A stretch of DNA of 64,000 nt from Methanobacteriota archaeon (GTDB taxonomy: Archaea; Halobacteriota; Bog-38; Methanoflorentales; Methanoflorentaceae), in the NCBI GenBank assembly GCA_963720465.1, contig OY970393.1:1-64000 (forward strand), written 5' to 3'. Both the position numbers and the translations under genes were made by a program. Position 1 is the first letter of the stretch, and every line of letters starts with the position of its first letter. Shown here in pieces: positions 8,042-36,108 of the stretch. A model generated the notes under the pieces. The model had not been told where the DNA came from. It ran no database searches and saw only the letters and a program-made list of their open reading frames with translations.

Positions 8042-8059
8042 AGGGGGGAATCTTCTCAA

Positions 8060-8761
8060 ATGGCTCGTTTCAACATCACGTTACCAACTTCCATCGCAAA
8101 AATGCTCGATCAGGACGCAGAGCATCAAGATATAGCCCGTTCGACGCTCATTGCGCAACACATAGCACAGCACTATGAAGGAAGATCAGAGGCTGACTAC
8201 GAAGCTGAGATTCGGGAGCAACGCATAGAATACGAAAAACAAGTCCAAAATCAGCGTGCGGAAAGCGCTAATATAGTGCAACGCGTTAGCGCCGAATATG
8301 AGAATAAGATTGAGAAACTTATCGCTGAGCATGATGCTGAGATACAGCAAATCCGCGCTGAATGTGAGAAGCAAATACAGCAGATTAACGCAGACCGTTC
8401 TGCAAGTATCCAACAGCTCGAGAACTCGCTCGAAGAACTGGAAAGTGTTACGCAGCAGCTCGATGCTAATCTGAAGGAATCTGGAGAGCGCAACCGCTCT
8501 TTGATGGAACAGCTGCGCGAATCGGAAGCATCGAAAAACGTTGTTGTCACTGGCCTGCAGCACCGCGTTGAACTCTTAGAAAAGGACAAAGCAAGCCTCG
8601 AAGCGGCACTGCAAGTTGAGAAGGGTCACTCACTCGAATTAAAAGCCGATAAGGAGACCCTGCAGAAGCAAGTCGAATTGCAGATGTTGCAATTGCCTGC
8701 CCCTAAAGTCGGTTTTTTGTCTCGAGGTTGGTCGCGGATATTTTCACGAGGCAAGACGTAG
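8060..8761 (+). CDS. RHH (CopG-like) DNA-binding protein with long coiled coil and amphipathic tail
   Basis: MARFNITLP...RSTLIAQHI, about 170 aa of heptads, tail LPAPKVGFLSRGWSRIF. Confidence 0.8.
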   Translation: MARFNITLPTSIAKMLDQDAEHQDIARSTLIAQHIAQHYEGRSEADYEAEIREQRIEYEKQVQNQRAESANIVQRVSAEYENKIEKLIAEHDAEIQQIRAECEKQIQQINADRSASIQQLENSLEELESVTQQLDANLKESGERNRSLMEQLRESEASKNVVVTGLQHRVELLEKDKASLEAALQVEKGHSLELKADKETLQKQVELQMLQLPAPKVGFLSRGWSRIFSRGKT

Positions 8762-8876
8762 GCCCTGGAGAATGAAGACCGTGCCGTCACGGAAGTTAAC
8801 AAGGCGCTCCTTTGGATACCCGCACCCAACCGCACCGCAACAGCTGCACGCTACTTTCAGCGTTCAAAGCGCAAAG

Positions 8877-9713
8877 ATGAGGCTCGATCATACCGCCGCG
8901 TTAGTCACATCGTGGGCAGCGCCCTTGTACGCGGAGGGCCCGACCGCGGCATTCGTAGGTCAGCTCGACCTCTCGCAGGGACAGGAGCTCCTCGCGCGTT
9001 GTGACGGCATATGCCCCTGGTACGGCGAAGTAATCCGCGACCGAAAGCACTTTTTAAGCCATTTCATTCAAAAAGAACTGGCGACGCGGGCTGAGCAGTG
9101 TCAGGTGGTGATCCCCGCGGCTGGAGTTTCCCCTCTCGCGTTCGAGCTTCTGCTCTCACAGCGCGACCGCGTAAAAAAGGTAATTGAGGTCGATATTGCG
9201 GGCACGGCAGAGAAACATCGGCTATATTCAACCGTGGCGCCACATCTGGCGGATCGGATTGCCTGTGTCACCGCCGACATTACCACAGCTGGATTTTCTG
9301 CCGGAATGCTCGAAACCGAAGGCGGTTACCAGCCCGATGTGCCCACGATCGTGCTTTTCGAAGGAATCAGCTATTACATAACGGAAGCTCAGCTCCGTCG
9401 CGCGATTGCGGTATTTCGATCTGCACAACAGCAGAACCTCATCGTCCTTGAACACCTGGTTCCCTGCGCGCTTGTCAACGAGGCGAGGCGCTCAATACCT
9501 TCAGGGATCTTCCGAACGATCGGAACCTATGTGGGCCTGTCGAACATTCGGTGTTACAGTCCGGCCCACGTAGAAGCACTCTTTCAAAGCGTGCGCTGCT
9601 CGGAAGTCCAACACTACTCGTCAACCGATATGGAGCGCGTGCGAAAAGGGAAACCGCAACGATTTGTCGAAGACGGTGATGGGTGGATCGGATGCGCGGT
9701 CGGAGCGATATAA
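8877..9713 (+). CDS. Class I SAM-dependent methyltransferase (LCM-like)
   Basis: QVVIPAAGVSP, IEVDI, ADIT and PTIVLFEGISYY motifs. Confidence 0.85.
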   Translation: MRLDHTAALVTSWAAPLYAEGPTAAFVGQLDLSQGQELLARCDGICPWYGEVIRDRKHFLSHFIQKELATRAEQCQVVIPAAGVSPLAFELLLSQRDRVKKVIEVDIAGTAEKHRLYSTVAPHLADRIACVTADITTAGFSAGMLETEGGYQPDVPTIVLFEGISYYITEAQLRRAIAVFRSAQQQNLIVLEHLVPCALVNEARRSIPSGIFRTIGTYVGLSNIRCYSPAHVEALFQSVRCSEVQHYSSTDMERVRKGKPQRFVEDGDGWIGCAVGAI

Positions 9714-9938
9714 TGAGGCCAGTTACGGGCAAACGGAGGGATACAGAGCACGAGCTACAAATAGACGCTGGGACTCCGAAAAACGCAAAGCAGTCCAATA
9801 CAGCCTCCGCAACGTTAGCAGTAGGCGTTCAATAGAGGCTCAAGCTAGCCTGATTGTGTGGCTGCCGCCTAAGAATGCTTGGGCTTTTGACCGGGTTGAT
9901 TAACTGCAGCTACCTCGCGCACTTTATTGTTATTTTAT

Positions 9939-10250
9939 TTAATCGTAGAATTCTTCGTAGTGCACCCCGTTAACTGCAATATCAAGCAGCACGTCAGAAG
10001 ACTTACATTGCGGGCACCGAGGAGGGGCATTGACCTTGAAGCTCCCGCCGCAGGCGCACTTTCCTGCATACTTCTCTACGTCGATAGGATCATGCCAGTT
10101 GTGGTCCAAGTCCATGTAGTCCACCCACCGCTCTCTTCCACACCCGTCGCAATGCAGAAAGTGGGCGCTCATTGATGGTCCGGATCTAACCTTGAAGGTG
10201 TGACCACATTCGTTGCACCGCGCACAAAAACTTCGTCCCACACATAACAC
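9939..10250 (-). CDS. Multi-CxxC zinc-ribbon protein
   Basis: CNECG, CDGCG, CACGG and CPQC motifs. Confidence 0.75.
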   Translation of the reverse strand: MLCVGRSFCARCNECGHTFKVRSGPSMSAHFLHCDGCGRERWVDYMDLDHNWHDPIDVEKYAGKCACGGSFKVNAPPRCPQCKSSDVLLDIAVNGVHYEEFYD

Positions 10251-10651
10251 AGCTGAGTTATTTAGTGTACTAGAATAATGGGAGAACGCAGAGAAATGCG
10301 TTAGCTAGGAATCCTGGTTCAATCTATAAACAATAGATGGTTAGCTGATGGTTAGCTACGTATTGCATAACGCCGTACGCGAGATTGACCTCTATTTAGA
10401 GGAGTTTCCAGTACTTTCTACCGAGTACCACGCCGATATTCTAAGGGTGCGGGCGGCTCCGGATCACGTGATCCAATTGCAGATGTGGAATCGCGGCGCG
10501 GAACCCGCGCACGTCCACGCGTGAACGGCTAACCTTATCTCGTTAGAACACAGACGATTATACGTGCTGAGAGATTTTAATCACCGAACGCCGCGATCGC
10601 GCTATGATCGCCACACCGTCCGCGCTCGCGACATTAGGTATGGAGCTATAT

Positions 10652-12076
10652 ATGGATGAAAAGGACGACATCGTTTTTCACGGAACTCTGCAGCAGCTCG
10701 TCGAGAAGGTCGAAGCGGGCGAGATGGTTCCCAAGCTGCAGGCATCGCACGCGCCGATGTGCAAGTTCTTTACTTCGTTTTATGTCATAAACGGGATTCG
10801 TCACGTGGTCCCTCTTGTGCACGGTCCAACCGGATGCCCTCTGTGGGTCTCAGATATTGTCAGGACGAGGGAGTGCTGCGAGTTCCGCGGCGTCCCCCTC
10901 GAGCCAACCGCATGCACCTCCCTTGACGAGACGAACGTCATCTACGGCGGCGAAGGGAAGCTGCTCGAAGCGGTCAAGGAGGCGGACGAGCGCTACCATC
11001 CCGACCTCATCGTGATTCTGTCCTGCTGCTGTTCCGGGATCATCGGCGACGACGTCGAAAGCGTCGCCGGTGAGGCCGAAAAGCTCGTGCACGCCCGCGT
11101 GCTCGCGCTTCGCAGCGAGGGGTTTGGCGGCGACTTCCGCAGCGGCTACGAAGACGCTTTTGAGCTCATTATGGACCTGATGGAGCCGCCGAAAACCACT
11201 CGGAAGGGAACGATCAATCTTATCGGGGCGCGAATGGGCCCCTCACTGACCGAGTTCAGCGACGACCTTGATGAGATTACGAAGCTGCTGCACGAGGTGG
11301 GGGTTAAGGTCAACGCGGTGATCGCTGGCGGATGCACGGTCGACGAGATCAGAAGGGCGCGCGAAGTTGAGCTCAACGCCTCGTGGTGTTACGATTGGGG
11401 TCAGAAGCTAGGTGACGCCATGGAAGCGCGCTTCGGCATCCCGTACAGCAGGACTGGACAGCCGTACGGGCTCAAAGCGACAGAGGAATGGCTTATGGGC
11501 ATCGCGGGCCCGCTCGGCATGAGGAAGGAGGCCACACGGGTGATACAGCGCGAGACGGAACGCGTTCGGCCTGATTTAACCTACTTGCACGACACGCTCG
11601 ACGGCAAGACTGCCGTTATCGAGATATCAGAGTTTCCCGGTCCGATACGGGCGCTCTCTCTTGCGCGTATGGCAGAAGAGTGCGGCGCTCATCCGGTTGT
11701 CATCAACGTGCATCCTTATACGATCAAGGAGCGGATGCCTAGCATCAAGTTCCTTTTGGACACTGGGGTCAACCCCGAAGTGATTCTCACGAAAGGCCTC
11801 TTTCGTCTAGGCAGCTTCCGTTCGTCGCGCGAGACGGAGGGCGAGCTCGAGGCAATCGCAGAGGGCCTTGACGACCCGATCTTCTTCGGCAACGCCGCCC
11901 GCTACCCCGGGTGTCCGGTTGTCAACCTTACGCTCCTTAATCCTGCGTACCTTCCCCACTATGGCTTCCGGGGCATTCACAACATCGCTGCCCTGCTCAG
12001 ACAAGCCATGGAAAACCAGCGCCTGCCGCGGTCAACGCTTTTTCGAGGGATGCTCTACGGAAACGAAACAAACTGA
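10652..12076 (+). CDS. Nitrogenase-like component I, alpha (NifD/NifE-like) subunit
   Basis: MCKF, HGPTGC, LDETNVIYGG, SCCCSGIIGDD, LNASWCY and YGFRG motifs; GGAG RBS before ATG 10652. Confidence 0.92.
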   Translation: MDEKDDIVFHGTLQQLVEKVEAGEMVPKLQASHAPMCKFFTSFYVINGIRHVVPLVHGPTGCPLWVSDIVRTRECCEFRGVPLEPTACTSLDETNVIYGGEGKLLEAVKEADERYHPDLIVILSCCCSGIIGDDVESVAGEAEKLVHARVLALRSEGFGGDFRSGYEDAFELIMDLMEPPKTTRKGTINLIGARMGPSLTEFSDDLDEITKLLHEVGVKVNAVIAGGCTVDEIRRAREVELNASWCYDWGQKLGDAMEARFGIPYSRTGQPYGLKATEEWLMGIAGPLGMRKEATRVIQRETERVRPDLTYLHDTLDGKTAVIEISEFPGPIRALSLARMAEECGAHPVVINVHPYTIKERMPSIKFLLDTGVNPEVILTKGLFRLGSFRSSRETEGELEAIAEGLDDPIFFGNAARYPGCPVVNLTLLNPAYLPHYGFRGIHNIAALLRQAMENQRLPRSTLFRGMLYGNETN

Positions 12077-13415
12077 TCAGACGCGCACCGCGCGAACGAC
12101 GCCCACTGACGCGTGCCTTGACCCATATATCAGATGTGCTCTTAGCGGCGCAGCCCAAACGGCGTTGGGAGTTAGTGACAGCGCCGTTCTCGCGCACGCA
12201 CCGCAGGGGTGCAATTATCTTGTTGACGGTGCTTTTTCATGGCAGGACTGCGACTACGCCCAAACGACGACGCTGTGCACCAAGCTCTGCGAGGATGAGA
12301 TCGTCCACGGTGGCGAGGAGCTCCTCGCCCGCACGATCCTTGAGGCCAAAGAGCTCGACATCGCCGCGCTCTTTGTTCTAAGCGCGTGTGGGCCCGAGAT
12401 CGTGGGCGACGACATCGTTGCGGTGTGCGAGGAAATGCAAGCCCAGGTTGACTTTACGATTGTTCCCATCGAGTGCGCCGGCTTTCGCGGTTCGCAATAC
12501 GATGGCATCGACCTCGCGCTCGACGCGATGCTTCGCGCGCTTGCCGGAAATGGGCGTCCTAGGATCCCGCACTCGGTGTGCCTCATCGCTCCCCATGCGA
12601 ACGCCAATCCGACGTGGATGGCCGATCTGGCGTGGGTAAAGGACGTTCTTGCCCGGCTTGGCGTTCAGGTGCTCGCCACGCTCACCCACGCAACGGCGCT
12701 TAGCGAGTTTGCACGCGTGTCCGCCGCTGAGGGGGTGCTTCAGTTAAGCCACGACGCCGGCTATCGCGCGGTCGAATATCTTATCGACACGTTTGGGGTC
12801 GAACCGCTTTGTAGGGATCTCCCCCTCCCCATCGGGATGACCAACACGCGGCGCTGGCTTACCGCCCTGGGGGAGCGGTTCGATGCGGAGCGCTCGGCCG
12901 AGGAGCTGATCGCCGAAGGCGAGCGGACGATAATGGAAACATGTCGCCGCCGCTGGCCAGTGGCGCGCTTTTTTTACCGGACGCCCGCGGCGGTCGTGGC
13001 TGACGCCACGGTTGGCATCCCGCTTGTCCGCTTTGCGACTGAGGAGATGGAGCTGACGCCCGCGCTCGTTGCCCTTCGCTCCGCGCACCCCGAAGCACAG
13101 CGCCTGCTTGAAAAAGAGCTGAACGACCTCGGCCTGGCGCCGCAGGTCGCGTATGGGACTGATGTCTTTGCGACGCGGCAGAGCCTTGAGCAGGTACGCC
13201 CGCGGGTGGTTTTCGGAAGCACGATCGAGAGACACGCAAGCGAGGGGTTGGACGTTCCGTACATCTTTGAGGTCGTGCGCCCTGTCAGGCAGTTCCGGCT
13301 GCTCAATCGGGAGTACTTCGGTTACCGCGGCATCCTCAATCTGCTCGAGTGCATCCAGAACGAGTGGAGCGACCGGTGGCGGTCAACCCAACGGCGTTAC
13401 GCTGCACGCTGGTAG
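12057..13415 (+). CDS. Nitrogenase-like component I, beta (NifK/NifN-like) subunit
   Basis: DPYIRCALSG, HAPQGC, EDEIVHGG, SACGPEIVGDD, LPIG and YFGYRG motifs. Start uncertain (ACG 12057 or ATG 11961). Confidence 0.9.
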   Translation, partial: TETKQTDQTRTARTTPTDACLDPYIRCALSGAAQTALGVSDSAVLAHAPQGCNYLVDGAFSWQDCDYAQTTTLCTKLCEDEIVHGGEELLARTILEAKELDIAALFVLSACGPEIVGDDIVAVCEEMQAQVDFTIVPIECAGFRGSQYDGIDLALDAMLRALAGNGRPRIPHSVCLIAPHANANPTWMADLAWVKDVLARLGVQVLATLTHATALSEFARVSAAEGVLQLSHDAGYRAVEYLIDTFGVEPLCRDLPLPIGMTNTRRWLTALGERFDAERSAEELIAEGERTIMETCRRRWPVARFFYRTPAAVVADATVGIPLVRFATEEMELTPALVALRSAHPEAQRLLEKELNDLGLAPQVAYGTDVFATRQSLEQVRPRVVFGSTIERHASEGLDVPYIFEVVRPVRQFRLLNREYFGYRGILNLLECIQNEWSDRWRSTQRRYAARW

Positions 13416-13428
13416 AGGAGACATCACA

Positions 13429-14283
13429 ATGAAACAAATCGCAATCTATGGCAAGGGAGGAATCGGAAAGAGCACCATCGCATCAAACATCTCAGCGGCC
13501 CTCAATGAGTGGGGGGTCAACGTCATGCAGGTCGGCTGCGACCCAAAGCGAGACTCAACGAGGATACTCGCGGGAGGGCACCTCATCCCCGCTGTCCTTG
13601 AGATCTACAGAGACAAGCTGCGGCACGGACAGGACGCGCACGCCATTTCGCTCGACGACATCGTCTTCAAGACGCCTAGCGGCATCTACTGCGTCGAAGC
13701 GGGAGGTCCGGAGCCTGGAATCGGCTGTGCCGGGCGCGGGGTTCTCACGGCGCTCCAAATTCTGAAAGACCTCAAGGCGTTTGAAACCTACGCGATTGAT
13801 GTGGCTATCTACGACGTTCTCGGCGACGTCGTGTGTGGCGGGTTTGCAATGCCCATCCGCGAAGGGTTTGCGAGTGAGATCTACCTCGTCTGTTCCGGAG
13901 GCTTTATGAGCATCTACGCGGCGAATAACATCGCGAGGGCGGTACAACGTCTCGCGCGCCGCGGCGACACCGGACTGTCCGGAATCATCTGCAACAGCAA
14001 CGGTGATGAGGCGCTGGAGCGGGCTGTGGTTCCCGCGTTTGCTCAGCGTTTGGGCAGCGCGTTCGTGGAATTTGTTCCGCGCAGCCCCGTAATTCAAGCG
14101 TGCGAACTTGAAGGGCGCGCGGTGGTTGAACACGCCCCTCAGTCAGAGGAGGCGGCGATTTTTCGGGATCTTGCGCGGAAGGTGATGGAAAACGACGTGA
14201 AAGTGATCCCGACGCCTGTGGAGGAACTGCCCGAGCTCGAAGAGTTATATCGGCGACACTTGGCAAGGCCTGAGGCCGTGTGA
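13429..14283 (+). CDS. NifH-like Fe protein (ATP-dependent reductase)
   Basis: YGKGGIGKST, GCDPKRDST, EAGGPEPGIGCAGRG and YDVLGDVVCGGFAMPIR; both [4Fe-4S] Cys present. Confidence 0.97.
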   Translation: MKQIAIYGKGGIGKSTIASNISAALNEWGVNVMQVGCDPKRDSTRILAGGHLIPAVLEIYRDKLRHGQDAHAISLDDIVFKTPSGIYCVEAGGPEPGIGCAGRGVLTALQILKDLKAFETYAIDVAIYDVLGDVVCGGFAMPIREGFASEIYLVCSGGFMSIYAANNIARAVQRLARRGDTGLSGIICNSNGDEALERAVVPAFAQRLGSAFVEFVPRSPVIQACELEGRAVVEHAPQSEEAAIFRDLARKVMENDVKVIPTPVEELPELEELYRRHLARPEAV

Positions 14284-14557
14284 ATCGGCGTCGTGGTAAG
14301 ACCGTTGTCCGCATGTGAGGCGACGTGAAACAAAAAAACGTGCTGCTGTGTTTAAGTTGTAAGAACTACGTCAGCCCTCGCGTATGTCAGGCCTTTGCTT
14401 CGATACCTTCGGAGATATGGGAAAATCGCTTTCGCCATACCGAGCCGTACCTCGGCGACAACGGGAAGCGTTTCACACCAAAATTCGGGTAACTTCGCTT
14501 GCGCGCGTCGGCACGCCGAAGCCCTCTAGTTGGCACCAAACGTGAAGCTTTGTTCCC

Positions 14558-15199
14558 ATGAAGCGCATCGAGATTGACGAGATTTACCAAAAAACACCGT
14601 TGGAGCTGATTCCCTGGAACATAGAAACCCCACCTCCGGCGCTAGTTGCGCTCGTCGACAGTCGAATCGTCACTCCGTGCCGAGCGATTGATCTCGGCTG
14701 CGGCGCCGGCAATTATGCAGTGTGGCTCGCGAGCAGTGGGTTTGAGGTCATGGGAGTAGATAGCGCCCCCACGGCGATCAAGCGCGCCAAGGAGAATGCG
14801 ACGAAAAAAGGGGTCGAGTGCACGTTTCTCGTTGCCGATGTGCTCGGCGATTTTGAAAACGTTACCGGCACGTTTGATTTTGCCTATGATTGGGAGCTGT
14901 TACATCACATTTTCCCTGAGCAGCGCCAGCGGTACGTAGCGAACGTGCATAGGCTCCTTAATCCAAAAGGGAAGTATCTTTCCCTGTGCTTCAACGAGAG
15001 AGATCCCGCTTTTGGCGGCGTGGGAAAGTATCGAAGGACGCCGTTGGGTACCGTGCTGTATTTCTCATCCGAAGGCGAGCTGCGTGCGCTTTTCGATTCC
15101 AATTTTAGGATTCTTGATTTGCGTACCGTTGAAGTGCACGGCAAATCTGCTTCACATCTTGCCAGCTACTGTTTCATGGAGCGAAAAGAGCCGCCTTAA
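14558..15199 (+). CDS. Class I SAM-dependent methyltransferase (TPMT/TehB-like)
   Basis: IPWN, IDLGCGAG, GVDSAPTAI and FDFAYDWELLHH motifs. Confidence 0.88.
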   Translation: MKRIEIDEIYQKTPLELIPWNIETPPPALVALVDSRIVTPCRAIDLGCGAGNYAVWLASSGFEVMGVDSAPTAIKRAKENATKKGVECTFLVADVLGDFENVTGTFDFAYDWELLHHIFPEQRQRYVANVHRLLNPKGKYLSLCFNERDPAFGGVGKYRRTPLGTVLYFSSEGELRALFDSNFRILDLRTVEVHGKSASHLASYCFMERKEPP

Positions 15200-15292
15200 A
15201 ATAGCGGGCGCTACGAATGGTGAGCGTGTCTCCGATCTGAGGCTATGAGCAATCGCACGCGAAATGCTCGCTTACTCGCGCAATACATAGTC

Positions 15293-15323: not shown

Positions 15324-15528
15324 CTAAAGTCAACGTGCTTAACGTGGGTGAAGATTTCCCGCACCACGTCAAGGTCGCGACCGTCTCAAACCAGAAATGG
15401 CTGACGAGGAAAGCCCCCGGTTTATCTAGTTAGCAAGGCCGAAGAGCGCACCGACGCGCTTTTCGGATCCTACAAGCGAGAAGGCTTGAAATACTAAAAG
15501 CAGCACATTCTTAAAAAAGGTGAAACAC

Positions 15529-16140
15529 GTGAACGAAGAAAAATGTGCACAATGCGGCACTCCAGCGTCGCCAGGTGCCCAATTCTGCGCGGCCTGCGGC
15601 GCGACGCTGACCGATCACAGGGCGCGCCCTTCCCAACGGGTTCCTCCTACGATGCAGCCTGCTCCGACTTATCAAGCGCCTGCTTACTACACGGGCACTC
15701 CTACGCCCTATATAGGCGTTGCCATTCGCTTTGTCGCGACAATCATTGATGCCATCATTATCGTGGTTATTGTTAGCATACTAACGATCCCTCTCCTCGT
15801 CGCGGCTATCGCCGTGAACGTCGGGAACGGAAACGTGTCAGCGATTTCATCGGGGCCTATTGTGGCACTAACTGTCGTAGGATTAGTCGTTTGGTTCCTC
15901 TATTTTACGCTGCTGGAGGGGCGCTATGGGCAAACGGTCGGCAAGATGGCACTCAGCATCAAGGTCGTGCGAGAAGCTGATGGAGCACCGATCGACTATG
16001 GAGAAGCGGCTGTGCGCACCGTCCTTCGCATCATCGACGGTTTGTTTGATTATCTCATAGGGGCAATTTTTATCTGGACCTCAGACAAGAAACAGCGCCT
16101 CGGCGATCGCGTCGCGCACACCGTCGTAGTTAGCCAGTGA
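15529..16140 (+). CDS. Zinc-ribbon + RDD-family membrane protein (paralog 1)
   Basis: CAQCG/CAACG; RFVATIID, GQTVGK and QRLGDRVAHTVV motifs; GTG start after AGGTGA. Confidence 0.9.
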   Translation: MNEEKCAQCGTPASPGAQFCAACGATLTDHRARPSQRVPPTMQPAPTYQAPAYYTGTPTPYIGVAIRFVATIIDAIIIVVIVSILTIPLLVAAIAVNVGNGNVSAISSGPIVALTVVGLVVWFLYFTLLEGRYGQTVGKMALSIKVVREADGAPIDYGEAAVRTVLRIIDGLFDYLIGAIFIWTSDKKQRLGDRVAHTVVVSQ

Positions 16141-16422
16141 TAGGCGTGAGTCCCCCCTTTTTGTGTTCTGGAGTAGCTTCATGTTTCGCAGAACATGCGT
16201 GGCTGGCCATATAGCTTCTACCAGTCTACCTCCTCATAGCCCCTCATTTTTGGTTCTGCGAACGGCACAACGACTCAAAGTGGCTGGTGCAGTGCGTTGA
16301 CCGACAGTACTTATCGTTCTATCGTTCGTAGCGAATAAGGCCACAGAACAGCGGCCGCGTAAAACCGCAAGAAAAGATTAAAAGGGTGGCTTTCCTATGG
16401 CTTAAGAAAGGAGGCGAAATGT

Positions 16423-17034
16423 TTGAACACAAATCAATGCGCACACTGCGGAACTCCCGCGTCACCGGGCGCTAAATACTGCGAAAGCTGTGGCGCCACA
16501 CTCGGGACGCAACCGGCTCAAGCGCTGCAGCCTTCGTTTGCTCTGGCATCCGGGTATCAAGCACCTCGTTCTTACGTGCCGCGCCTCGCGCCGCCCTACC
16601 AAGGCGTTGCCATTCGCTTTGTCGCGATTCTTATTGATACTATAATTATAGCGATCATCGGAGGTATATTGTCCGCCCCGTTCAACGCGCTCACAGTCAT
16701 TCCGAACAGCGCGTCAGGAACCGCCACTATTTCACTGGCCACTGCTGTCGGGGGACTTGTTTCGCTGGCGGTCTTTGTTCTGTACTTCACGTTGCTCGAG
16801 GGCCACTACGGACAGACTGTCGGGAAAATGGCCGTCAAGAGCAAAGTCGTGCGAGAAGCAGATGGCGCACCGATCGACTATTCCGAAGCTGCAGTCCGAA
16901 CGATCCTGCGGTTTCTTGATCTGATCCCATTCATAATCCCCTATCTGCTCGGCGCACTCCTCATTTGGTCCTCCGAAGAGAAACAGCGCCTCGGCGACCG
17001 CGTAGCGCATACCGTTGTGCTTAAAGCTGAATAG
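16423..17034 (+). CDS. Zinc-ribbon + RDD-family membrane protein (paralog 2)
   Basis: Same motifs as paralog 1; TTG start after GGAGG. Confidence 0.9.
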   Translation: MNTNQCAHCGTPASPGAKYCESCGATLGTQPAQALQPSFALASGYQAPRSYVPRLAPPYQGVAIRFVAILIDTIIIAIIGGILSAPFNALTVIPNSASGTATISLATAVGGLVSLAVFVLYFTLLEGHYGQTVGKMAVKSKVVREADGAPIDYSEAAVRTILRFLDLIPFIIPYLLGALLIWSSEEKQRLGDRVAHTVVLKAE

Positions 17035-17300
17035 ATTCAGTGCTCCATTTTCTTATTACTACCGCGGACAGAGTCTTTGATCTTTGCTGGGCTTGCTCTG
17101 TAATCGGACACATCGCCCTACGAAGAGCGTTTTGGCTTAGTTATAAGCGTGACAAGTCTTTGTGGCGAGGACTGGTTCCTGGTGCCCAAGCGCGAATCGA
17201 GCTTCTATAGCTGCCGATCGAGAACATGCTTATAACTGAGCAGTTTGACTGCAAATCGTAAGAAAGATTAAAAGGAACGCTCCTCTATGACTTAAAAAAA

Positions 17301-17642
17301 GGAGGTGAAACACGTGGAAGAAGACAAATGTGCACAATGCGGCACTCCTGCACCACCGGGCGCTAAATACTGCGAAAGCTGTGGCGCTCCGCTTGCGGCT
17401 GCTTCGCAACCTGCGGAGGTGAAACACGCCGACGAAGACAAATGTGCACAATGCGGCACTCCTGCACCACCGGGCGCTAAATACTGCGAAAGCTGTGGCG
17501 CTCCGCTTGCGGCTGCTTCGCAACCTGCGGAGGTGAAACACGCCGACGAAGACAAATGTGCACAATGCGGCACTCCTGCAGCACCCGGGGCCAAGTTCTG
17601 TGAAAGCTGTGGTGCACCACTAGCTGCCGTTACACAACCAGT
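17301..17642 (+). repeat. Three tandem 114-bp repeats (38 aa Zn-ribbon unit)
   Basis: GGAGGTGAAACACG recurs at 17301, 17415 and 17529; units 1 and 2 are nearly identical. Confidence 0.95.
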
Positions 17643-18111
17643 CCAAGGCCCAGCTGCCGCGGAACCTGCTGCTGCGTACACAGCACCACGGGCGCAAGCG
17701 CCTTACTCAGCACCAGGCGTTGAAATGCCTTATCAGGGCGTCGCCATCCGGTTTGTAGCGTTACTCATTGATGCCATTATTTTAGGGATTATCACTAGCG
17801 CAATTTCGTTTGTCGCTGTGAGCTACGCAGCTATCGTTTTGGGCATTGTGATCGACCTGCTCTACTTTACGCTCCTCTTGGGGCGTTATGGGCAATCGGT
17901 CGGAATGATGGTAGTCAAGATAAAAGTGGTCAGTGAGGCGGACAGCTCACCGATCACTTACGGAGCGGCGTTTGTGCGTACGATTCTTTTGTTGATCGAT
18001 GCTATCCCGTACGTCGTCCCTTACCTGCTCGGAGCAATCCTCATCTGGACCTCAGACAAGAAACAGCGCCTCGGCGATCGCATCGCGCACACCGTCGTAC
18101 TGAAAGCGTGA
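17314..18111 (+). CDS. Triple zinc-ribbon + RDD-family membrane protein (paralog 3)
   Basis: Three CAQCG...CESCG units followed by an RDD domain; GTG 17314 after GGAGGTGA. Confidence 0.9.
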   Translation: MEEDKCAQCGTPAPPGAKYCESCGAPLAAASQPAEVKHADEDKCAQCGTPAPPGAKYCESCGAPLAAASQPAEVKHADEDKCAQCGTPAAPGAKFCESCGAPLAAVTQPVQGPAAAEPAAAYTAPRAQAPYSAPGVEMPYQGVAIRFVALLIDAIILGIITSAISFVAVSYAAIVLGIVIDLLYFTLLLGRYGQSVGMMVVKIKVVSEADSSPITYGAAFVRTILLLIDAIPYVVPYLLGAILIWTSDKKQRLGDRIAHTVVLKA

Positions 18112-18385
18112 TAGGGGCGCAAGCCCCATTTGTCTTTTTTGTCACCAATAAGCGGCTAGCTTCGTCCATAGCTGTCGCTCTGAGCCTGGAAGCAGACCCC
18201 GGAGGCAGGCATCAAGTGAAACTATTGAAACGAGAACAGCGCGTTGCGATTCTGCAATGCTGGGTGTGGCGATTGTCGTGCCACGTCAAAATGAAACCGA
18301 AGCACGCACACTGCCAGCAAATCGCAAGAAAGATAAAAAGGAACGCTCTTCTTATGGCGTAACAAATGCAAAGGAGGTGAAACGC

Positions 18386-18991
18386 GTGAACGAAGAAAAA
18401 TGTACACAATGTGGTACTCGTGCAACCCCTGGCGCACAATACTGCGCGGCGTGTGGGGCGGCATTCACCAGCCAAGCACCAGCCGGTGAACCTGGGGAGG
18501 GTGCATATGCACCCTGGGCGGCAAATGAAACACGGGCGCATTACGCGGCCTCGCCGCTATTGCAGGGAGTTGCTATCCGCTTTGTCGCACAACTCGTCGA
18601 TGTAATCATACTTGCTGTCATCTTTTTGATACTGGGCTTCTCCGGCGCTGGCACCATCACCATCAATGCGTCAACAGCACAGGTCTCAATCAGCCCTTTC
18701 TTTGGCTCGCTCATCTTGATCGATATCATCATCGCATTCCTTTACTTCACGCTGCTCGAGGGACGAAACGGACAAACAGTTGGCAAGATGATCGTTAAGA
18801 TCAAGGTAGTAAAAAAAGTGGACCACTCTCCGATCACTTACGCTGAGGCTGCCGTGCGGACGATTTTGCGCATCATCGATCTGATTCCGTTCATCGCCCC
18901 GTATCTACTCGGAGCGGCACTCATCTGGGCATCTGAGTATAAGCAGCGTCTCGGCGATCGCGTCGCAAACACCGTCGTCGTGCCGTCGTGA
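18386..18991 (+). CDS. Zinc-ribbon + RDD-family membrane protein (paralog 4)
   Basis: CTQCG/CAACG and RDD motifs; GTG 18386 after GGAGGTGA. Confidence 0.9.
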   Translation: MNEEKCTQCGTRATPGAQYCAACGAAFTSQAPAGEPGEGAYAPWAANETRAHYAASPLLQGVAIRFVAQLVDVIILAVIFLILGFSGAGTITINASTAQVSISPFFGSLILIDIIIAFLYFTLLEGRNGQTVGKMIVKIKVVKKVDHSPITYAEAAVRTILRIIDLIPFIAPYLLGAALIWASEYKQRLGDRVANTVVVPS

Positions 18992-33942: not shown

Positions 33943-35556
33943 TTAAACCCTTCTTAGCAACAGGTACAGAACACCGACGAGGAGCGTTGGAGCTCCTAGC
34001 CCCAGTAGAGAGAACTCAAACACGGACTGCGCGGGCAAGGTGGCTGTGGTGCCCGTTTGGGCTCCCGGCAAGCTCATACTCGCCACTGAGCCATTCTGTG
34101 ACAGCGCAGATGCTTCGGCTGCTATCGCAGACGCTTCTCCAAACGCGTTTGACGAGACTGCTGGCACTAGCAATGAAGGGCTGTACACTAAACACTTCTG
34201 CGACGCGCTAAGCAGACACGTGCGTTGGGATGGTGGCGCACTGCAGTTCTCAGGGTCTGCACTTAGCGCCATTTTTCCAGCGGCCAGCTGCGTAGCATTT
34301 GTCGGCGACGGGCTTGATTGGGGTTTTTCAGTGGAGCTTGCAGCAACTTCACTCGAGTGCTTTGATTGTGAGGCGACAACTGTGGGGGTAGCAGGGGTCG
34401 GCTTCGCTTGTGTCGGAGGCACTGGACTGACGGTCGGATCACTTGGGGTTCCGTTCGTCGCTGAGTTCGTCGTTGAGTTCGTCGTTGAGTTCGTCGCTGA
34501 GTTCGTCGCTGAGTTCGTCGCTGAGTTCGTCGTTGAGTTCGTCGTTGAGTTCGTCGCTGAGTTCGTCGCTGAGTTCGTCGCTGAGTTCGTCGCTGAGTTC
34601 GTCGTTGAGTTCGTCGCTGAGTTCGTCGCTGAGTTCGTCGCTGAGTTCGTCGTTGAGTTCGTCGCTGAGTTCGTCGTTGAGTTCGTCGCTGAGTTCGTCG
34701 CTGAGTTCGTCGTTGAGTTCGTCGCTGAGTTCGTCGTTGAGTTCGTCGCTGAGTTCGTCGTTGAGTTCGTCGCTGAGTTCGTCGCTGAGTTCGTCGCTGA
34801 GTTCGTCGCTGAGTTCGTCGCTGAGTTCGTCGCTGAGTTCGTCGCTGAGTTCGTCGCTGAGTTCGTCGCTGAGTTCGTCGCTGAGTTCGTCGTTGAGTTC
34901 GTCGCTGAGTTCGTCGTTGAGTTCGTCGCTGAGTTCGTCGTTGAGTTCGTCGCTGAGTTCGTCGTTGAGTTCGTCGCTGAGTTCGTCGTTGAGTTCGTCG
35001 CTGAGTTCGTCGCTGAGTTCGTCGCTGAGTTCGTCGTTGAGTTCGTCGTTGAGTTCGTCGCTGAGTTCGTCGCTGAGTTCGTCGCTGAGTTCGTCGCTGA
35101 GTTCGTCGCTGAGTTCGTCGTTGAGTTCGTCGCTGAGTTCGTCGCTGAGTTCGTCGCTGAGTTCGTCGCTGAGTTCGTCGCTGAGTTCGTCGCTGAGTTC
35201 GTCGCTGAGTTCGTCGCTGAGTTCGTCGCTGAGTTCGTCGCTGAGTTCGTCGTTGAGTTCGTCGCTGAGTTCGTCGCTGAGTTCGTCGCTGAGTTCGTCG
35301 CTGAGTTCGTCGCTGAGTTCGTCGCTGAGTTCGTCGTTGAGTTCGTCGCTGAGTTCGTCGCTGAGTTCGTCGCTGAGTTCGTCGCTGAGTTCGTCGTTGA
35401 GTTCGTCGTTGAGTTCGTCGTTGAGTTCGTCGCGCTTGTTTGTAGCGTTCTTTGGACGTTTTGTGCGCTGGGCAAAGAAGCAAGAGCTGGAGCGATAGTA
35501 AATGCTATCAACACTATGAAAATCGCTACGATCGGAACGATACGCTTAATCGCCAT
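33943..35556 (-). CDS. Surface glycoprotein with (A/T)TNS repeat stalk and PEF-CTERM-like tail
   Basis: Signal peptide, 81 TNS(A/T) units, and tail VFEFSLLGLGAPTLLVGVLYLLLRRV. Confidence 0.85.
   Translation of the reverse strand: MAIKRIVPIVAIFIVLIAFTIAPALASLPSAQNVQRTLQTSATNSTTNSTTNSTTNSATNSATNSATNSATNSTTNSATNSATNSATNSATNSATNSATNSTTNSATNSATNSATNSATNSATNSATNSATNSATNSATNSATNSTTNSATNSATNSATNSATNSATNSTTNSTTNSATNSATNSATNSTTNSATNSTTNSATNSTTNSATNSTTNSATNSTTNSATNSATNSATNSATNSATNSATNSATNSATNSATNSATNSTTNSATNSTTNSATNSTTNSATNSATNSTTNSATNSTTNSATNSATNSATNSTTNSATNSATNSATNSATNSTTNSTTNSATNSATNSATNSTTNSTTNSATNGTPSDPTVSPVPPTQAKPTPATPTVVASQSKHSSEVAASSTEKPQSSPSPTNATQLAAGKMALSADPENCSAPPSQRTCLLSASQKCLVYSPSLLVPAVSSNAFGEASAIAAEASALSQNGSVASMSLPGAQTGTTATLPAQSVFEFSLLGLGAPTLLVGVLYLLLRRV
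34453..35433. repeat. 12-bp tandem repeat GAGTTCGTCG(C/T)T, about 82 units
   Basis: Unbroken 12-bp period with one variable position; manual count 58 C and 23 T. Confidence 0.99.
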
Positions 35557-35605
35557 TATGGTTAATGCATCTTAGCTATCTGCCGCTAAATATCTTTCGT
35601 TTTGT

Positions 35606-35638
35606 AAAAAATAAAAAAAGACCGGACGATCGGCGTCC
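35606..35638 (-). terminator. Hairpin plus oligo-T terminator
   Basis: GGACG/CGTCC stem followed by a long T tract on the minus strand, after the 35646 stop. Confidence 0.5.
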
Positions 35639-35645
35639 GTGTCAC

Positions 35646-35900
35646 CTACAAAAGTTGAAGAACGATGTTTGCAAGATTCACTTGACTCGGGCTCGTAAAT
35701 GCCGTTGAAGGGTCAAGGATCGAGAGCGGCCCGCTCTGAGTCGGAGCGCTCTGCGGCGCCGAAGCGGGAGTATTAACAGTCATAACATCGTTGCCGTAGT
35801 GGACTTGACAAGTGGGGCAGTACGCAGCTGACACTTGGAATGAAAGCACCATGATAACAACTCCGATTAGGAGCGTCATCACTATTTGCCTCGGTTTCAA
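35646..35900 (-). CDS. Small secreted protein with CPTC motif
   Basis: GGAGGT RBS, signal peptide ending VSA/AA, mature N-terminus YCPTCQVH. Confidence 0.7.
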   Translation of the reverse strand: MKPRQIVMTLLIGVVIMVLSFQVSAAYCPTCQVHYGNDVMTVNTPASAPQSAPTQSGPLSILDPSTAFTSPSQVNLANIVLQLL

Positions 35901-36108
35901 CGAATTACCTCCTGTGCCCCCGTGGGGGCGCTATTGGCATTACCGAGTGAAATCTTTTAGCGTTGTATAAATAGCTTCTCTTTTGCTTCCGTTGTTTCCA
36001 TTGGAGCAATTGAGCTAAAGATGTTTTTTCGCCAGAACAAAGCGATCGCTGACCAAACTGGCGTTGCGGAACAAAAAGGAATAAAAAAGGGTTAAAAGAA
36101 TAACCCTA

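Follow-up and report, generated by a model that had tools for sequence, protein, structure and literature searches.

A nitrogenase-like D-K-H operon of a Methanoflorentaceae archaeon belongs to a clade of its own and encodes an Fe protein that probably also serves CfbD

The stretch of 64,000 nucleotides analysed here (the window; contig OY970393.1 of assembly GCA_963720465.1, Methanobacteriota archaeon, family Methanoflorentaceae) is part of a single-contig genome of 2.31 Mb (G000) that is 91% complete by markers and contains mcrA. At positions 10652–14283 it carries three open reading frames (ORFs), all on the plus strand, encoding a nitrogenase-like alpha-type subunit (D), a beta-type subunit (K) and a NifH-family Fe protein (H). 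This D-K-H arrangement had been recognized in an earlier interpretation made without database searches (the sequence-only reading), and the motifs quoted there, MCKF, PTGC, SCCCSG, IRCAL, PQGC, SACGP, LNASWCY, PVVNLTLL, EGFGGDFRSGY and RECC, are present in the translations. We propose, and consider it somewhat probable from the sequence evidence, that D-K-H forms a self-contained two-component system, an ATP-dependent reductase of the nitrogenase superfamily placed in a clade of its own. H probably also serves CfbD in F430 synthesis. D (10652–12076, 474 amino acids) and K (tentatively 11961–13415, within an open frame of 11868–13415) match PF00148 (Oxidored_nitro) with 243 and 252.8 bits, respectively. 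H (13429–14283, 284 amino acids) has all the features by which a NifH-family Fe protein is recognized, namely a PF00142 (Fer4_NifH) score of 318.4 bits against a cut-off of 25, the Walker A motif GKGGIGKS and two [4Fe-4S] cysteines in CAGRG and VCGGF.

Phylogenetic position of D, K and H

The NCBIfam score of D is highest for nifE (162.2 bits, cut-off 505.1), followed by N2-ase-Ialpha (137.9, cut-off 486.05) and nifD (121.6, cut-off 653.55), while K scores 101.4 on BchB (cut-off 490.35), 61 on vnfK (873.95), 40.9 on nifK (427.3) and 25.7 on nifN (326.8). Scores of D and K against the BchN, BchB, BchY, BchZ and CfbD models are 30–101 bits with cut-offs of 268–529, and those on the CfbD model are 30–46 bits. 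H reaches 345.5 bits on the CfbC model NF033200 (cut-off 402) and 345.6 bits on nifH (cut-off 394.35). Searches of the PDB with D as single sequence gave nearly tied matches to MarD (110 bits), NifD of C. pasteurianum (107.5 bits) and a NifEN fusion (105 bits), and searches with the family profile gave NifEN (169 bits), NifD (168 bits) and MarD (159 bits); the best match of K is MarK (9d9u_C, 89.4 bits). Among 1.84 billion cluster representatives searched with HMMER, one representative stands for the whole D family (77% identity, 851.8 bits). After a gap follow representatives with 38% (369 bits) and 35% identity (324 bits), and all other full-length ones have at most 33% identity and at most 197 bits.

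The tree was calculated with IQ-TREE (LG+C20 with posterior mean site frequencies, PMSF) from 57 rows, and support is given as ultrafast bootstrap (UFBoot)/Shimodaira-Hasegawa-like approximate likelihood ratio test (SH-aLRT) values. The rows were hand-picked and comprise 37 of the 150 best HMMER representatives together with locus proteins; fragments shorter than 370 amino acids were excluded from the first tree. Since none of 16 cluster representatives scanned passed any NCBIfam cut-off, the named anchors were drawn from loci and checked with NCBIfam: NifD, NifK, NifE and the gene in the NifN position (below the NifN cut-off) of genome G026, and VnfD and VnfK (the latter just below its cut-off) of locus L083. 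The D family forms its own clade with support of 100/100. It groups with a sister clade (loci L080 and L083–L087) at 94/84, and both with P0121 at 100/99, while NifD, NifE and VnfD form a 100/100 clade without the D family. Likewise, K and sister K (100/99) are separate from NifK, NifN and VnfK (100/99). A different supergroup contains the Mar-like rows, which we name so because P0249 matches MarD (9fmg_A) with 211.9 bits; P0157, from a neighbouring clade of 17 rows with a clade of three rows beside it, had no PDB match at E ≤ 1e-20. The phylogeny and the alignment of ligand positions, on which the sequence-only reading had staked its claim, thus do not nest D and K within NifDK, NifEN or MarDK.

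What that reading had not foreseen is the identity of the closest relatives, which are E/N-like pairs (D'-K') located after vnfHDGK. The sister clade, found in Archaeoglobus, Clostridium, Ruminococcaceae, a deltaproteobacterial metagenome-assembled genome (MAG) and Telmatobacter bradus, has the layout vnfH-vnfD-(G)-vnfK-D'-K', often with a NifB-like gene nearby, so that the pair occupies the vnfEN position. In L083, the sister locus to which the NCBIfam check was confined, the genes before the pair encode a NifH and a VnfD that pass their cut-offs (459 and 939.4 bits, respectively) and a VnfK-like protein that stays below its own (847.6 bits, cut-off 873.95). The VnfK-like ORF (cluster 19) lies directly upstream of sister D in all seven sister loci (L080, L082–L087), and an H and an alpha-like ORF lie further upstream in six of them; L085 begins too late. 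For both subunits this is the closest clade (37–40% identity for D), and the pairs share with D-K six cluster cysteines, the Cys275 equivalent, the NxHP histidine, the lack of His at the positions of nitrogenase His442 and Mar His429, and the NifB-like gene nearby; D'-K' scores 176 bits on nifE. Because the sister K-like proteins keep three cysteines, the six-cysteine site does not divide D-K from all E/N-type proteins, and the contrast with NifEN drawn in the sequence-only reading therefore does not extend to every E/N-type protein. Unlike the sister pairs, which sit after vnfH-vnfD-(G)-vnfK and use VnfH, the D-K family has its own H 3' of K, follows the order D-K-H(-B) and occurs mostly in genomes that lack nitrogenase altogether. 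Early-diverged VnfE homologues with long branches and maturase-like ancestors are described by Garcia et al. 2022 (PMC8890362), and the sister clade probably corresponds to these VnfE homologues. The D family is sister to the vnf-linked clade and not nested in it (94/84), and it lies far from canonical NifE.

No archaeal or Chloroflexota D-K-H(-B) family was described in the literature searched, which for the published classification of nitrogenase-like proteins covered main texts, and the clade may overlap with Group IV-D or IV-E; the same search found no papers joining 'Methanoflorens' with 'nitrogenase'. In their main texts, a 2026 review (PMC13474568) and a 2026 mBio paper present Group IV from bacterial classes only, CfbCD excepted. 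We therefore regard the D-K-H clade as uncharacterised, within a known kind of system, the nitrogenase-like two-component systems.

Cluster ligands and the putative cofactor pocket

Cys62, Cys126 and Cys246 of D align with Cys91, Cys158 and Cys270 of MarD (9fmg_A, native numbering). In MarD, Cys91 and Cys158 are P-cluster ligands and Cys270 is the equivalent of nitrogenase Cys275; the A. vinelandii counterparts are Cys88, Cys154 and Cys275 (PMC13474568). Cys37 of D aligns with the first cluster cysteine of VnfD, for which two sequences pass the VnfD cut-off, and of all other alpha-type rows, and its distance to Cys62 of 25 residues is the same as between Cys66 and Cys91 of MarD. In K, numbered from 12078, Cys45 and Cys104 align with Cys56 and Cys121 of MarK, and Cys20 aligns with the first cysteine of VnfK. 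The alignments with MarD/MarK and VnfD/VnfK thus bear out the six P-cluster cysteines (Cys37, Cys62 and Cys126 of D; Cys20, Cys45 and Cys104 of K) and the retained Cys275 equivalent, Cys246, that had been proposed by eye.

The predicted losses in the active site were found as well. The column of the cofactor histidine of VnfD, corresponding to His442, is occupied by Thr427 in D (NLTLL) and holds no His in any of the 11 D-family and sister rows shown. A family profile aligned with solved NifD also pairs Thr427 with the cofactor histidine, in an alignment that is weak taken alone. Since a PDB search with the C-terminal 158 amino acids of D gave no nitrogenase match, the histidine positions were taken from the family profile and the MAFFT alignments. 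The Gln and His columns of VnfD that correspond to Gln191 and His195 contain Phe162 and Tyr166 in D. Together with the NCBIfam scores below the nitrogenase cut-offs and the position outside the NifD+NifE+VnfD clade, these substitutions support the proposal that the enzyme is not N2-fixing.

In Mar the second ligand of the mar2 cluster is His429, accompanied by Arg428 (PMC13474568). The columns of Arg428 and His429, as set by the MarD alignment, are occupied by Gly413 and Asn414 in D, where the loop is five residues shorter; elsewhere in the D family the His429 column holds Ser or Asn, and the Mar-like rows P0249, P0221, P0233, P0242 and P0254 keep His. Invariant across 19 aligned family and sister sequences are Cys37, Cys62, Cys126, Cys228, Cys246, His354 (NxHP) and Arg361. 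His354 adjoins the column of MarD His374/375, residues that lie within hydrogen-bond distance of a belt sulfur (PMC13474568). Because Cys246 is kept and the positions of His442 and Mar His429 lack histidine, the cofactor pocket of D would be anchored by one cysteine and by neither known histidine ligand. The AlphaFold2 model of D (predicted local distance difference test score, pLDDT, 78.9; predicted template modelling score, pTM, 0.81) has low confidence in the loops at about 74–96 and 158–161, which are expected to face the cofactor. Its best fold match is MarD (9fmg_A, E 1.8e-23, template modelling (TM) score 0.68) in a search that does not discriminate, as MarD, NifD, NifK and NifEN all reach TM scores of 0.58–0.68.

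Compared with MarBHDK (Group IV-C; PDB 9FMG and 9D9U), which is the best single-sequence PDB match and the best fold match, D-K-H shares the set of P-cluster cysteines, the Cys270 equivalent, an aromatic residue at the position of Trp195 (Phe162 in D) and an organization in four genes that includes a NifB homologue and needs no E/N; for marBHDK, the main text of published work on nitrogenase-like proteins states that no E/N scaffold is required. The differences are an identity of about 24–30%, the replacement of His429 and Arg428 and the shortened loop, the other tree supergroup, the order D-K-H-B instead of B-H-D-K, and no sulfur-gene neighbourhood found. The assignment as 'Mar-like or new-clade' given in the sequence-only reading is weak in its first half: the trees support a new clade, and the two replaced residues, the supergroup and the neighbourhood speak against a Mar-like enzyme. 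With NifEN and NifDK, D-K has in common near-equal profile scores, the same fold, the Cys275 equivalent and, as in E-type proteins, no His442; it differs in NCBIfam scores far below cut-off, the position outside the NifD+NifE+VnfD clade, the three cysteines kept in K and the absence of nitrogenase from the genome.

By homology, we propose that H would act as a dimer that is bridged by one [4Fe-4S] cluster and hydrolyses ATP. Its electrons would reach a P-type [8Fe-7S] cluster with three cysteine ligands each from D and K and then, within D, an iron-sulfur(-carbide) cofactor of the NifB-co/L-cluster type. Cys246 would anchor this cofactor and the invariant His354 would line it, and it would have neither the His442/homocitrate end of nitrogenase nor the His429 end of Mar. 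Mar and nitrogenase are described with this layout, in which the Fe protein is a dimer, the P-type cluster sits where D and K meet and the cofactor lies under the Cys275 equivalent (PMC13474568). By analogy with Mar and Isr, the substrate might be a small carbon-heteroatom compound that is cleaved reductively for nutrient acquisition, a guess to which we attach a low probability at best.

Distribution, gene neighbourhood and the Fe protein H

One genome per species was scanned, which gave at least 599 matching stretches; at least 571 of these code for a relative, and 80 loci were retained. Among the matches listed, family members share 49–97% identity, with MAGs labelled Euryarchaeota, Halobacteriota or Methanomicrobia nearest; other hosts are Methanoregulaceae, Methanolinea, Methanomicrobiaceae, Methanosarcina, Methanothrix, Methanolliviera and Thermococci, and bacterial hosts are Chloroflexota (Dehalococcoidia, Anaerolineae) and Armatimonadota. 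Cultured carriers include Methanocella paludicola and isolates of Methanoregula or Methanolinea. Relatives are named in databases only as 'nitrogenase associated protein' or 'nitrogenase component 1', including that of Methanocella paludicola (80% identity), for which the available text of the genome paper mentions only two nifH homologues. Contigs of close relatives (90–95% alike) from RNA libraries cover parts of D-K-H in all four runs, and one contig of 4306 nt spans D, K and the start of H. As these runs are available as contigs, their depth cannot rank genes and uncovered stretches carry no meaning, and shares of 0.07–0.09 in RNA runs are no habitat evidence.

The order D-K-H is present in all 51 family loci (L008–L079) with a recognised H ORF; among the 21 other family loci, which are without H, most end too early, and L058 and L075 have room after K. 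Of the bacterial loci, 13 extend at least 900 nt beyond H; in 11 of these a NifB-like radical S-adenosylmethionine (SAM) gene follows directly 3' of H, and the remaining two have it about 1.1 kb farther downstream. None of 35 archaeal loci has a NifB-like gene beside H. The genome of the window contains its own NifB at G000:C1:91551-92393 (361.6 bits, over cut-off), so the statement of the sequence-only reading that nifB is missing applies to the window and not to the genome, and its 'unknown cofactor' is narrowed towards a NifB-made one by this gene and the bacterial NifB-like gene after H. ABC-2 transporter genes occur upstream in some Methanomicrobiales, and in 24 bacterial loci the sole other ORF cluster present in at least three loci, the listing threshold, encodes an ATP-binding cassette (ABC) ATPase (four loci). 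Nitrogenase alpha over the TIGR01862 cut-off is absent from 17 of 20 carrier genomes, for which no completeness values are given, and present in three, and in eight bacterial carrier genomes D and K are the only PF00148-like genes.

These distributions bear on the question whether D-K is an E/N-type scaffold or carrier that would hold or modify a NifB L-type cluster together with H and pass it to a non-homologous enzyme. Such a role would suit the sister clade's place directly after vnfH-vnfD-(G)-vnfK, with the VnfK-like ORF upstream in seven of seven loci, the lack of His at either second-ligand position, as reported for E-type proteins (PMC8890362), and the early-diverged VnfE homologues and maturase-like ancestors described in the same paper. 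However, with 17 of 20 carriers lacking a nitrogenase alpha over cut-off the module cannot be a nitrogenase maturase, the eight bacterial carriers have no other PF00148-like gene, and no conserved recipient gene lies nearby. Activation of methyl-coenzyme M reductase (MCR) cannot serve as a target in Chloroflexota. The maturase Cys48 (NifD numbering) is absent, as residues 1–36 of D contain no Cys, although some VnfE homologues also lack it (PMC8890362), and the three cysteines of K form a P-type site suited to electron relay, although the sister clade has three too. We consider this role unlikely, and favor an end-user enzyme with a NifB-made cluster because the NifB-like gene is part of the bacterial clusters, nitrogenase is mostly absent and no partner gene is conserved.

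A second alternative is N2 fixation of the Nfa kind, which would serve nitrogenase-free peat methanogens. Nfa (Group IV-A) is reported to be weakly diazotrophic without key nitrogenase residues (PMC13474568), the P-type site, the Cys275 equivalent and NifB are present, and metagenomes of peat, wetland and freshwater sediment contain close DNA matches. Against these points, the D family lies outside the Mar/Nfa-like supergroup of the tree, in which IV-A rows are not labelled, nifI, glnB and amtB do not adjoin the operon, and three of the 20 carriers also have a true nitrogenase. A search of the window for the NrpR-type operator pattern GGAA-N6-TTCC found none upstream of D; the sole match, at 14970, compares with a chance expectation of 0.94. 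The [8Fe-9S-C] cluster of Mar does not reduce N2 (PMC12552129). We hold N2 fixation by D-K-H to be very improbable.

H has a second probable role apart from the proposed D-K-H reductase. It is the only NifH-family gene over cut-off in the 2.31-Mb genome, where the next match has 21.4 bits, so 'stand-alone', the term of the sequence-only reading, is apt for D-K and not for H. The genome contains four PF00148 genes, D, K, CfbD (499.9 bits) and a paralogue of 401 amino acids, and no NifD or VnfD. CfbD adjoins CfbE (296.2 bits) in a cfb operon at G000:C1:593814-597210 (L004; compare L088 and L090), with mcrA nearby at 586427-586804. The cfb operons of G018, which belongs to another genus of the same family, and of G026 read cfbE-cfbD-cfbC-next gene. 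The corresponding interval of G000, from the end of cfbD at 595743 to the start of the next gene at 595792, measures 49 nt and cleanly lacks cfbC, and the best match in the whole of G000 to the CfbC proteins of G018 and G026 is H with 43–45% identity. In a tree of 45 rows, one of which (L025) is a spurious ORF with a very long branch, H is placed among the H proteins from D-K-H loci, outside NifH/VnfH and outside the cfb-type clade (G018, G019, G026, G028 and G029; 99% SH-aLRT). Compared with CfbCD (Group IV-B), H is likewise a NifH-family ATPase, probably standing in for CfbC, but it falls outside the CfbC clade and below the CfbC cut-off, and the true CfbD of the genome is encoded elsewhere.

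Among 17 genomes of the same genus (59–91% complete), four have no NifH-family match at E ≤ 1e-20, 11 have one and two have two, the extra matches being a nifH-like gene in G012 (412 bits) and a partial match in G003. D was found in 11 of the 17 as well as in G018; 12 genomes from other families gave no match to it. G009 (same genus, 85% complete) keeps H with 97% identity in the same neighbourhood and lacks D and K; its PF00148 genes are the 401-amino-acid paralogue and CfbD only. When its locus L101 (G009:C28, 2286–5821) is compared with 8045–15256 of the window, about 1.1 kb containing one ORF of 265 amino acids takes the place of 8781–13417. RNA-library contigs from two studies (X17 and X19) start to match at 13417, with unlike sequence before it; a promoter at this point was considered and rejected, as the start matches the G009-type arrangement. 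Because H is the only NifH homologue, cfbC is gone and G009 lost D-K yet kept H, we propose that H probably also serves CfbD in F430 synthesis and replaces CfbC in this genus. An ancestor with D-K-H and cfbC would have lost cfbC, H would have taken over its role, and D-K, but not H, could later have been lost. The 401-amino-acid paralogue (G000:C1:1777667-1778869; L001 1432-2637; 287.5 bits) has three Cys at cluster positions, fits no NCBIfam model and has no adjoining K-type or H partner; it is found in 13 of the 17 genomes of the genus and in G018, G020 and G030, and it may be a further client of H.

The sharing of H with CfbD would be explained if D-K-H itself reduced a tetrapyrrole or another large cofactor, like CfbCD or DPOR, for instance for a modified F430. 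Many nitrogenase-like systems are biosynthetic (PMC8890362), H probably serves CfbD, and in some methanogens a methyltransferase gene follows H. On the other hand, D-K-H is common in Chloroflexota and Armatimonadota, there with the NifB-like gene, the six cysteines and the Cys275 equivalent differ from the [4Fe-4S]-only pattern of CfbD, DPOR and COR (PMC13474568), and the BchN, BchB, BchY, BchZ and CfbD scores are the low ones given above. We therefore give this explanation hardly any weight, and what is left of our expectation goes to something else altogether.

Several points weigh against the proposed reductase and the additional role of H. The nearest relatives (37–40% identity) occupy the vnfEN position after vnfHDGK, and this kinship makes a scaffold or carrier role a real alternative. 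We can name no second protein ligand, which is as compatible with a cluster held loosely as with one that is catalytic. Methanogens need NifB anyway for the MCR activation complex (PMC12176620), so the genomic NifB is not specific evidence, and the representative of the NifB-like neighbours scores 248.8 bits on TIGR01290, below the cut-off of 343.65. At least one sister species, G009, does without D-K. In the loci compared, no genes of sulfur, nitrogen or tetrapyrrole metabolism were found to be conserved beside the module, which leaves no clue to the substrate. The RNA-library contigs may hold DNA and are no proof of transcription. Finally, the partnership of H and CfbD is derived from gene loss, and the completeness of G009 is 85%.

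Operon boundaries, neighbouring features and implications

The start of D at 10652 agrees with the N-termini of 18 homologues. The start of K is less conventional: its conserved core extends from 12078 (445 amino acids), ATG, GTG and TTG are absent between the stop of D (12074–12076) and the first cysteine of K, and the sole canonical start is the ATG at 11961, which overlaps D by 115 nt and is formed by the Tyr-Gly codons of a conserved D motif. In a comparison of the D/K junction in eight sequences, the window, L009 and L010 have K without a canonical start near the D stop, and L011 and L049 of the same genus have no ATG at the equivalent of 11961 and use other K starts instead. The non-coding region upstream of D-K-H, a presumed promoter read directly at 10251–10651 on the plus strand, contains the octamer GGTTAGCT three times at about 10301–10358, which may be a regulator site.

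Downstream of H, a SAM-dependent methyltransferase (TPMT/TehB-like) of 213 amino acids is encoded at 14558–15199 on the plus strand (PF13649, 72.5 bits; PF05724 (TPMT), 54.7 bits). A homologue follows H directly in L019, L020, L027, L028, L032, L033, L042 and L075 (Methanosarcinaceae and Methanoregulaceae), and by ORF-cluster count a methyltransferase is present in six of 35 archaeal loci. The gene is intact in the window, is split by about 1.2 kb in L011 (12386–14311), has a 206-nt deletion in L101 (2286–2765) and was not found in L009, L010, L013, L014, L049 and L076, and thus appears to be decaying within the genus. Its candidacy as a functional partner, for which the deletion in G009 had been read as co-loss with D-K, was downgraded, as the gene is also missing or split in relatives that keep D-K; it is possibly associated with the module by a weak link.

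Elsewhere in the window, four tandem paralogues encoding zinc-ribbon plus membrane (RDD-like) proteins occupy 15520–18991, and in one of them (17305–18111) a 114-nt unit is repeated 2.7 times, triplicating a CxxC-containing N-terminus. At 34453–35433, the 12-nt unit GTTCGTCGCTGA is repeated 81.8 times with 96% match, and this array coincides with a strong anomaly of AT skew and GC skew in the bin 34001–36000.

In conclusion, D-K-H represents a separate and widespread clade of nitrogenase-like proteins, hosted by Chloroflexota and by major methanogens of wetlands, peat and digesters. To our knowledge, those nitrogenase-like enzymes that carry complex clusters have until now been linked with nitrogen (Nif, Nfa) and with bacterial sulfur scavenging (Mar, Isr). 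As the clade stands beside the disputed early VnfE/N branch, it bears on whether the ancestor of nitrogenase was maturase-like or reductase-like. We speculate, while regarding this as doubtful, that the D-K clade is a free-standing relative of early E/N-type proteins, the putative ancestors of nitrogenase, and is still enzymatic with a bare NifB-made iron-sulfur-carbide cluster on a single cysteine, and that in this genus a single Fe protein powers as many as three partners, namely D-K, CfbD and the 401-amino-acid paralogue. If true, this would be the first natural Fe protein shared by a cluster-bearing reductase and F430 synthesis. Partner specificity of Fe proteins is named as an open question in the 2026 review (PMC13474568), and the loss of cfbC offers a directly testable case for it. 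For annotation, it follows that nifH-type genes in these peat methanogens indicate neither diazotrophy nor a canonical CfbC.

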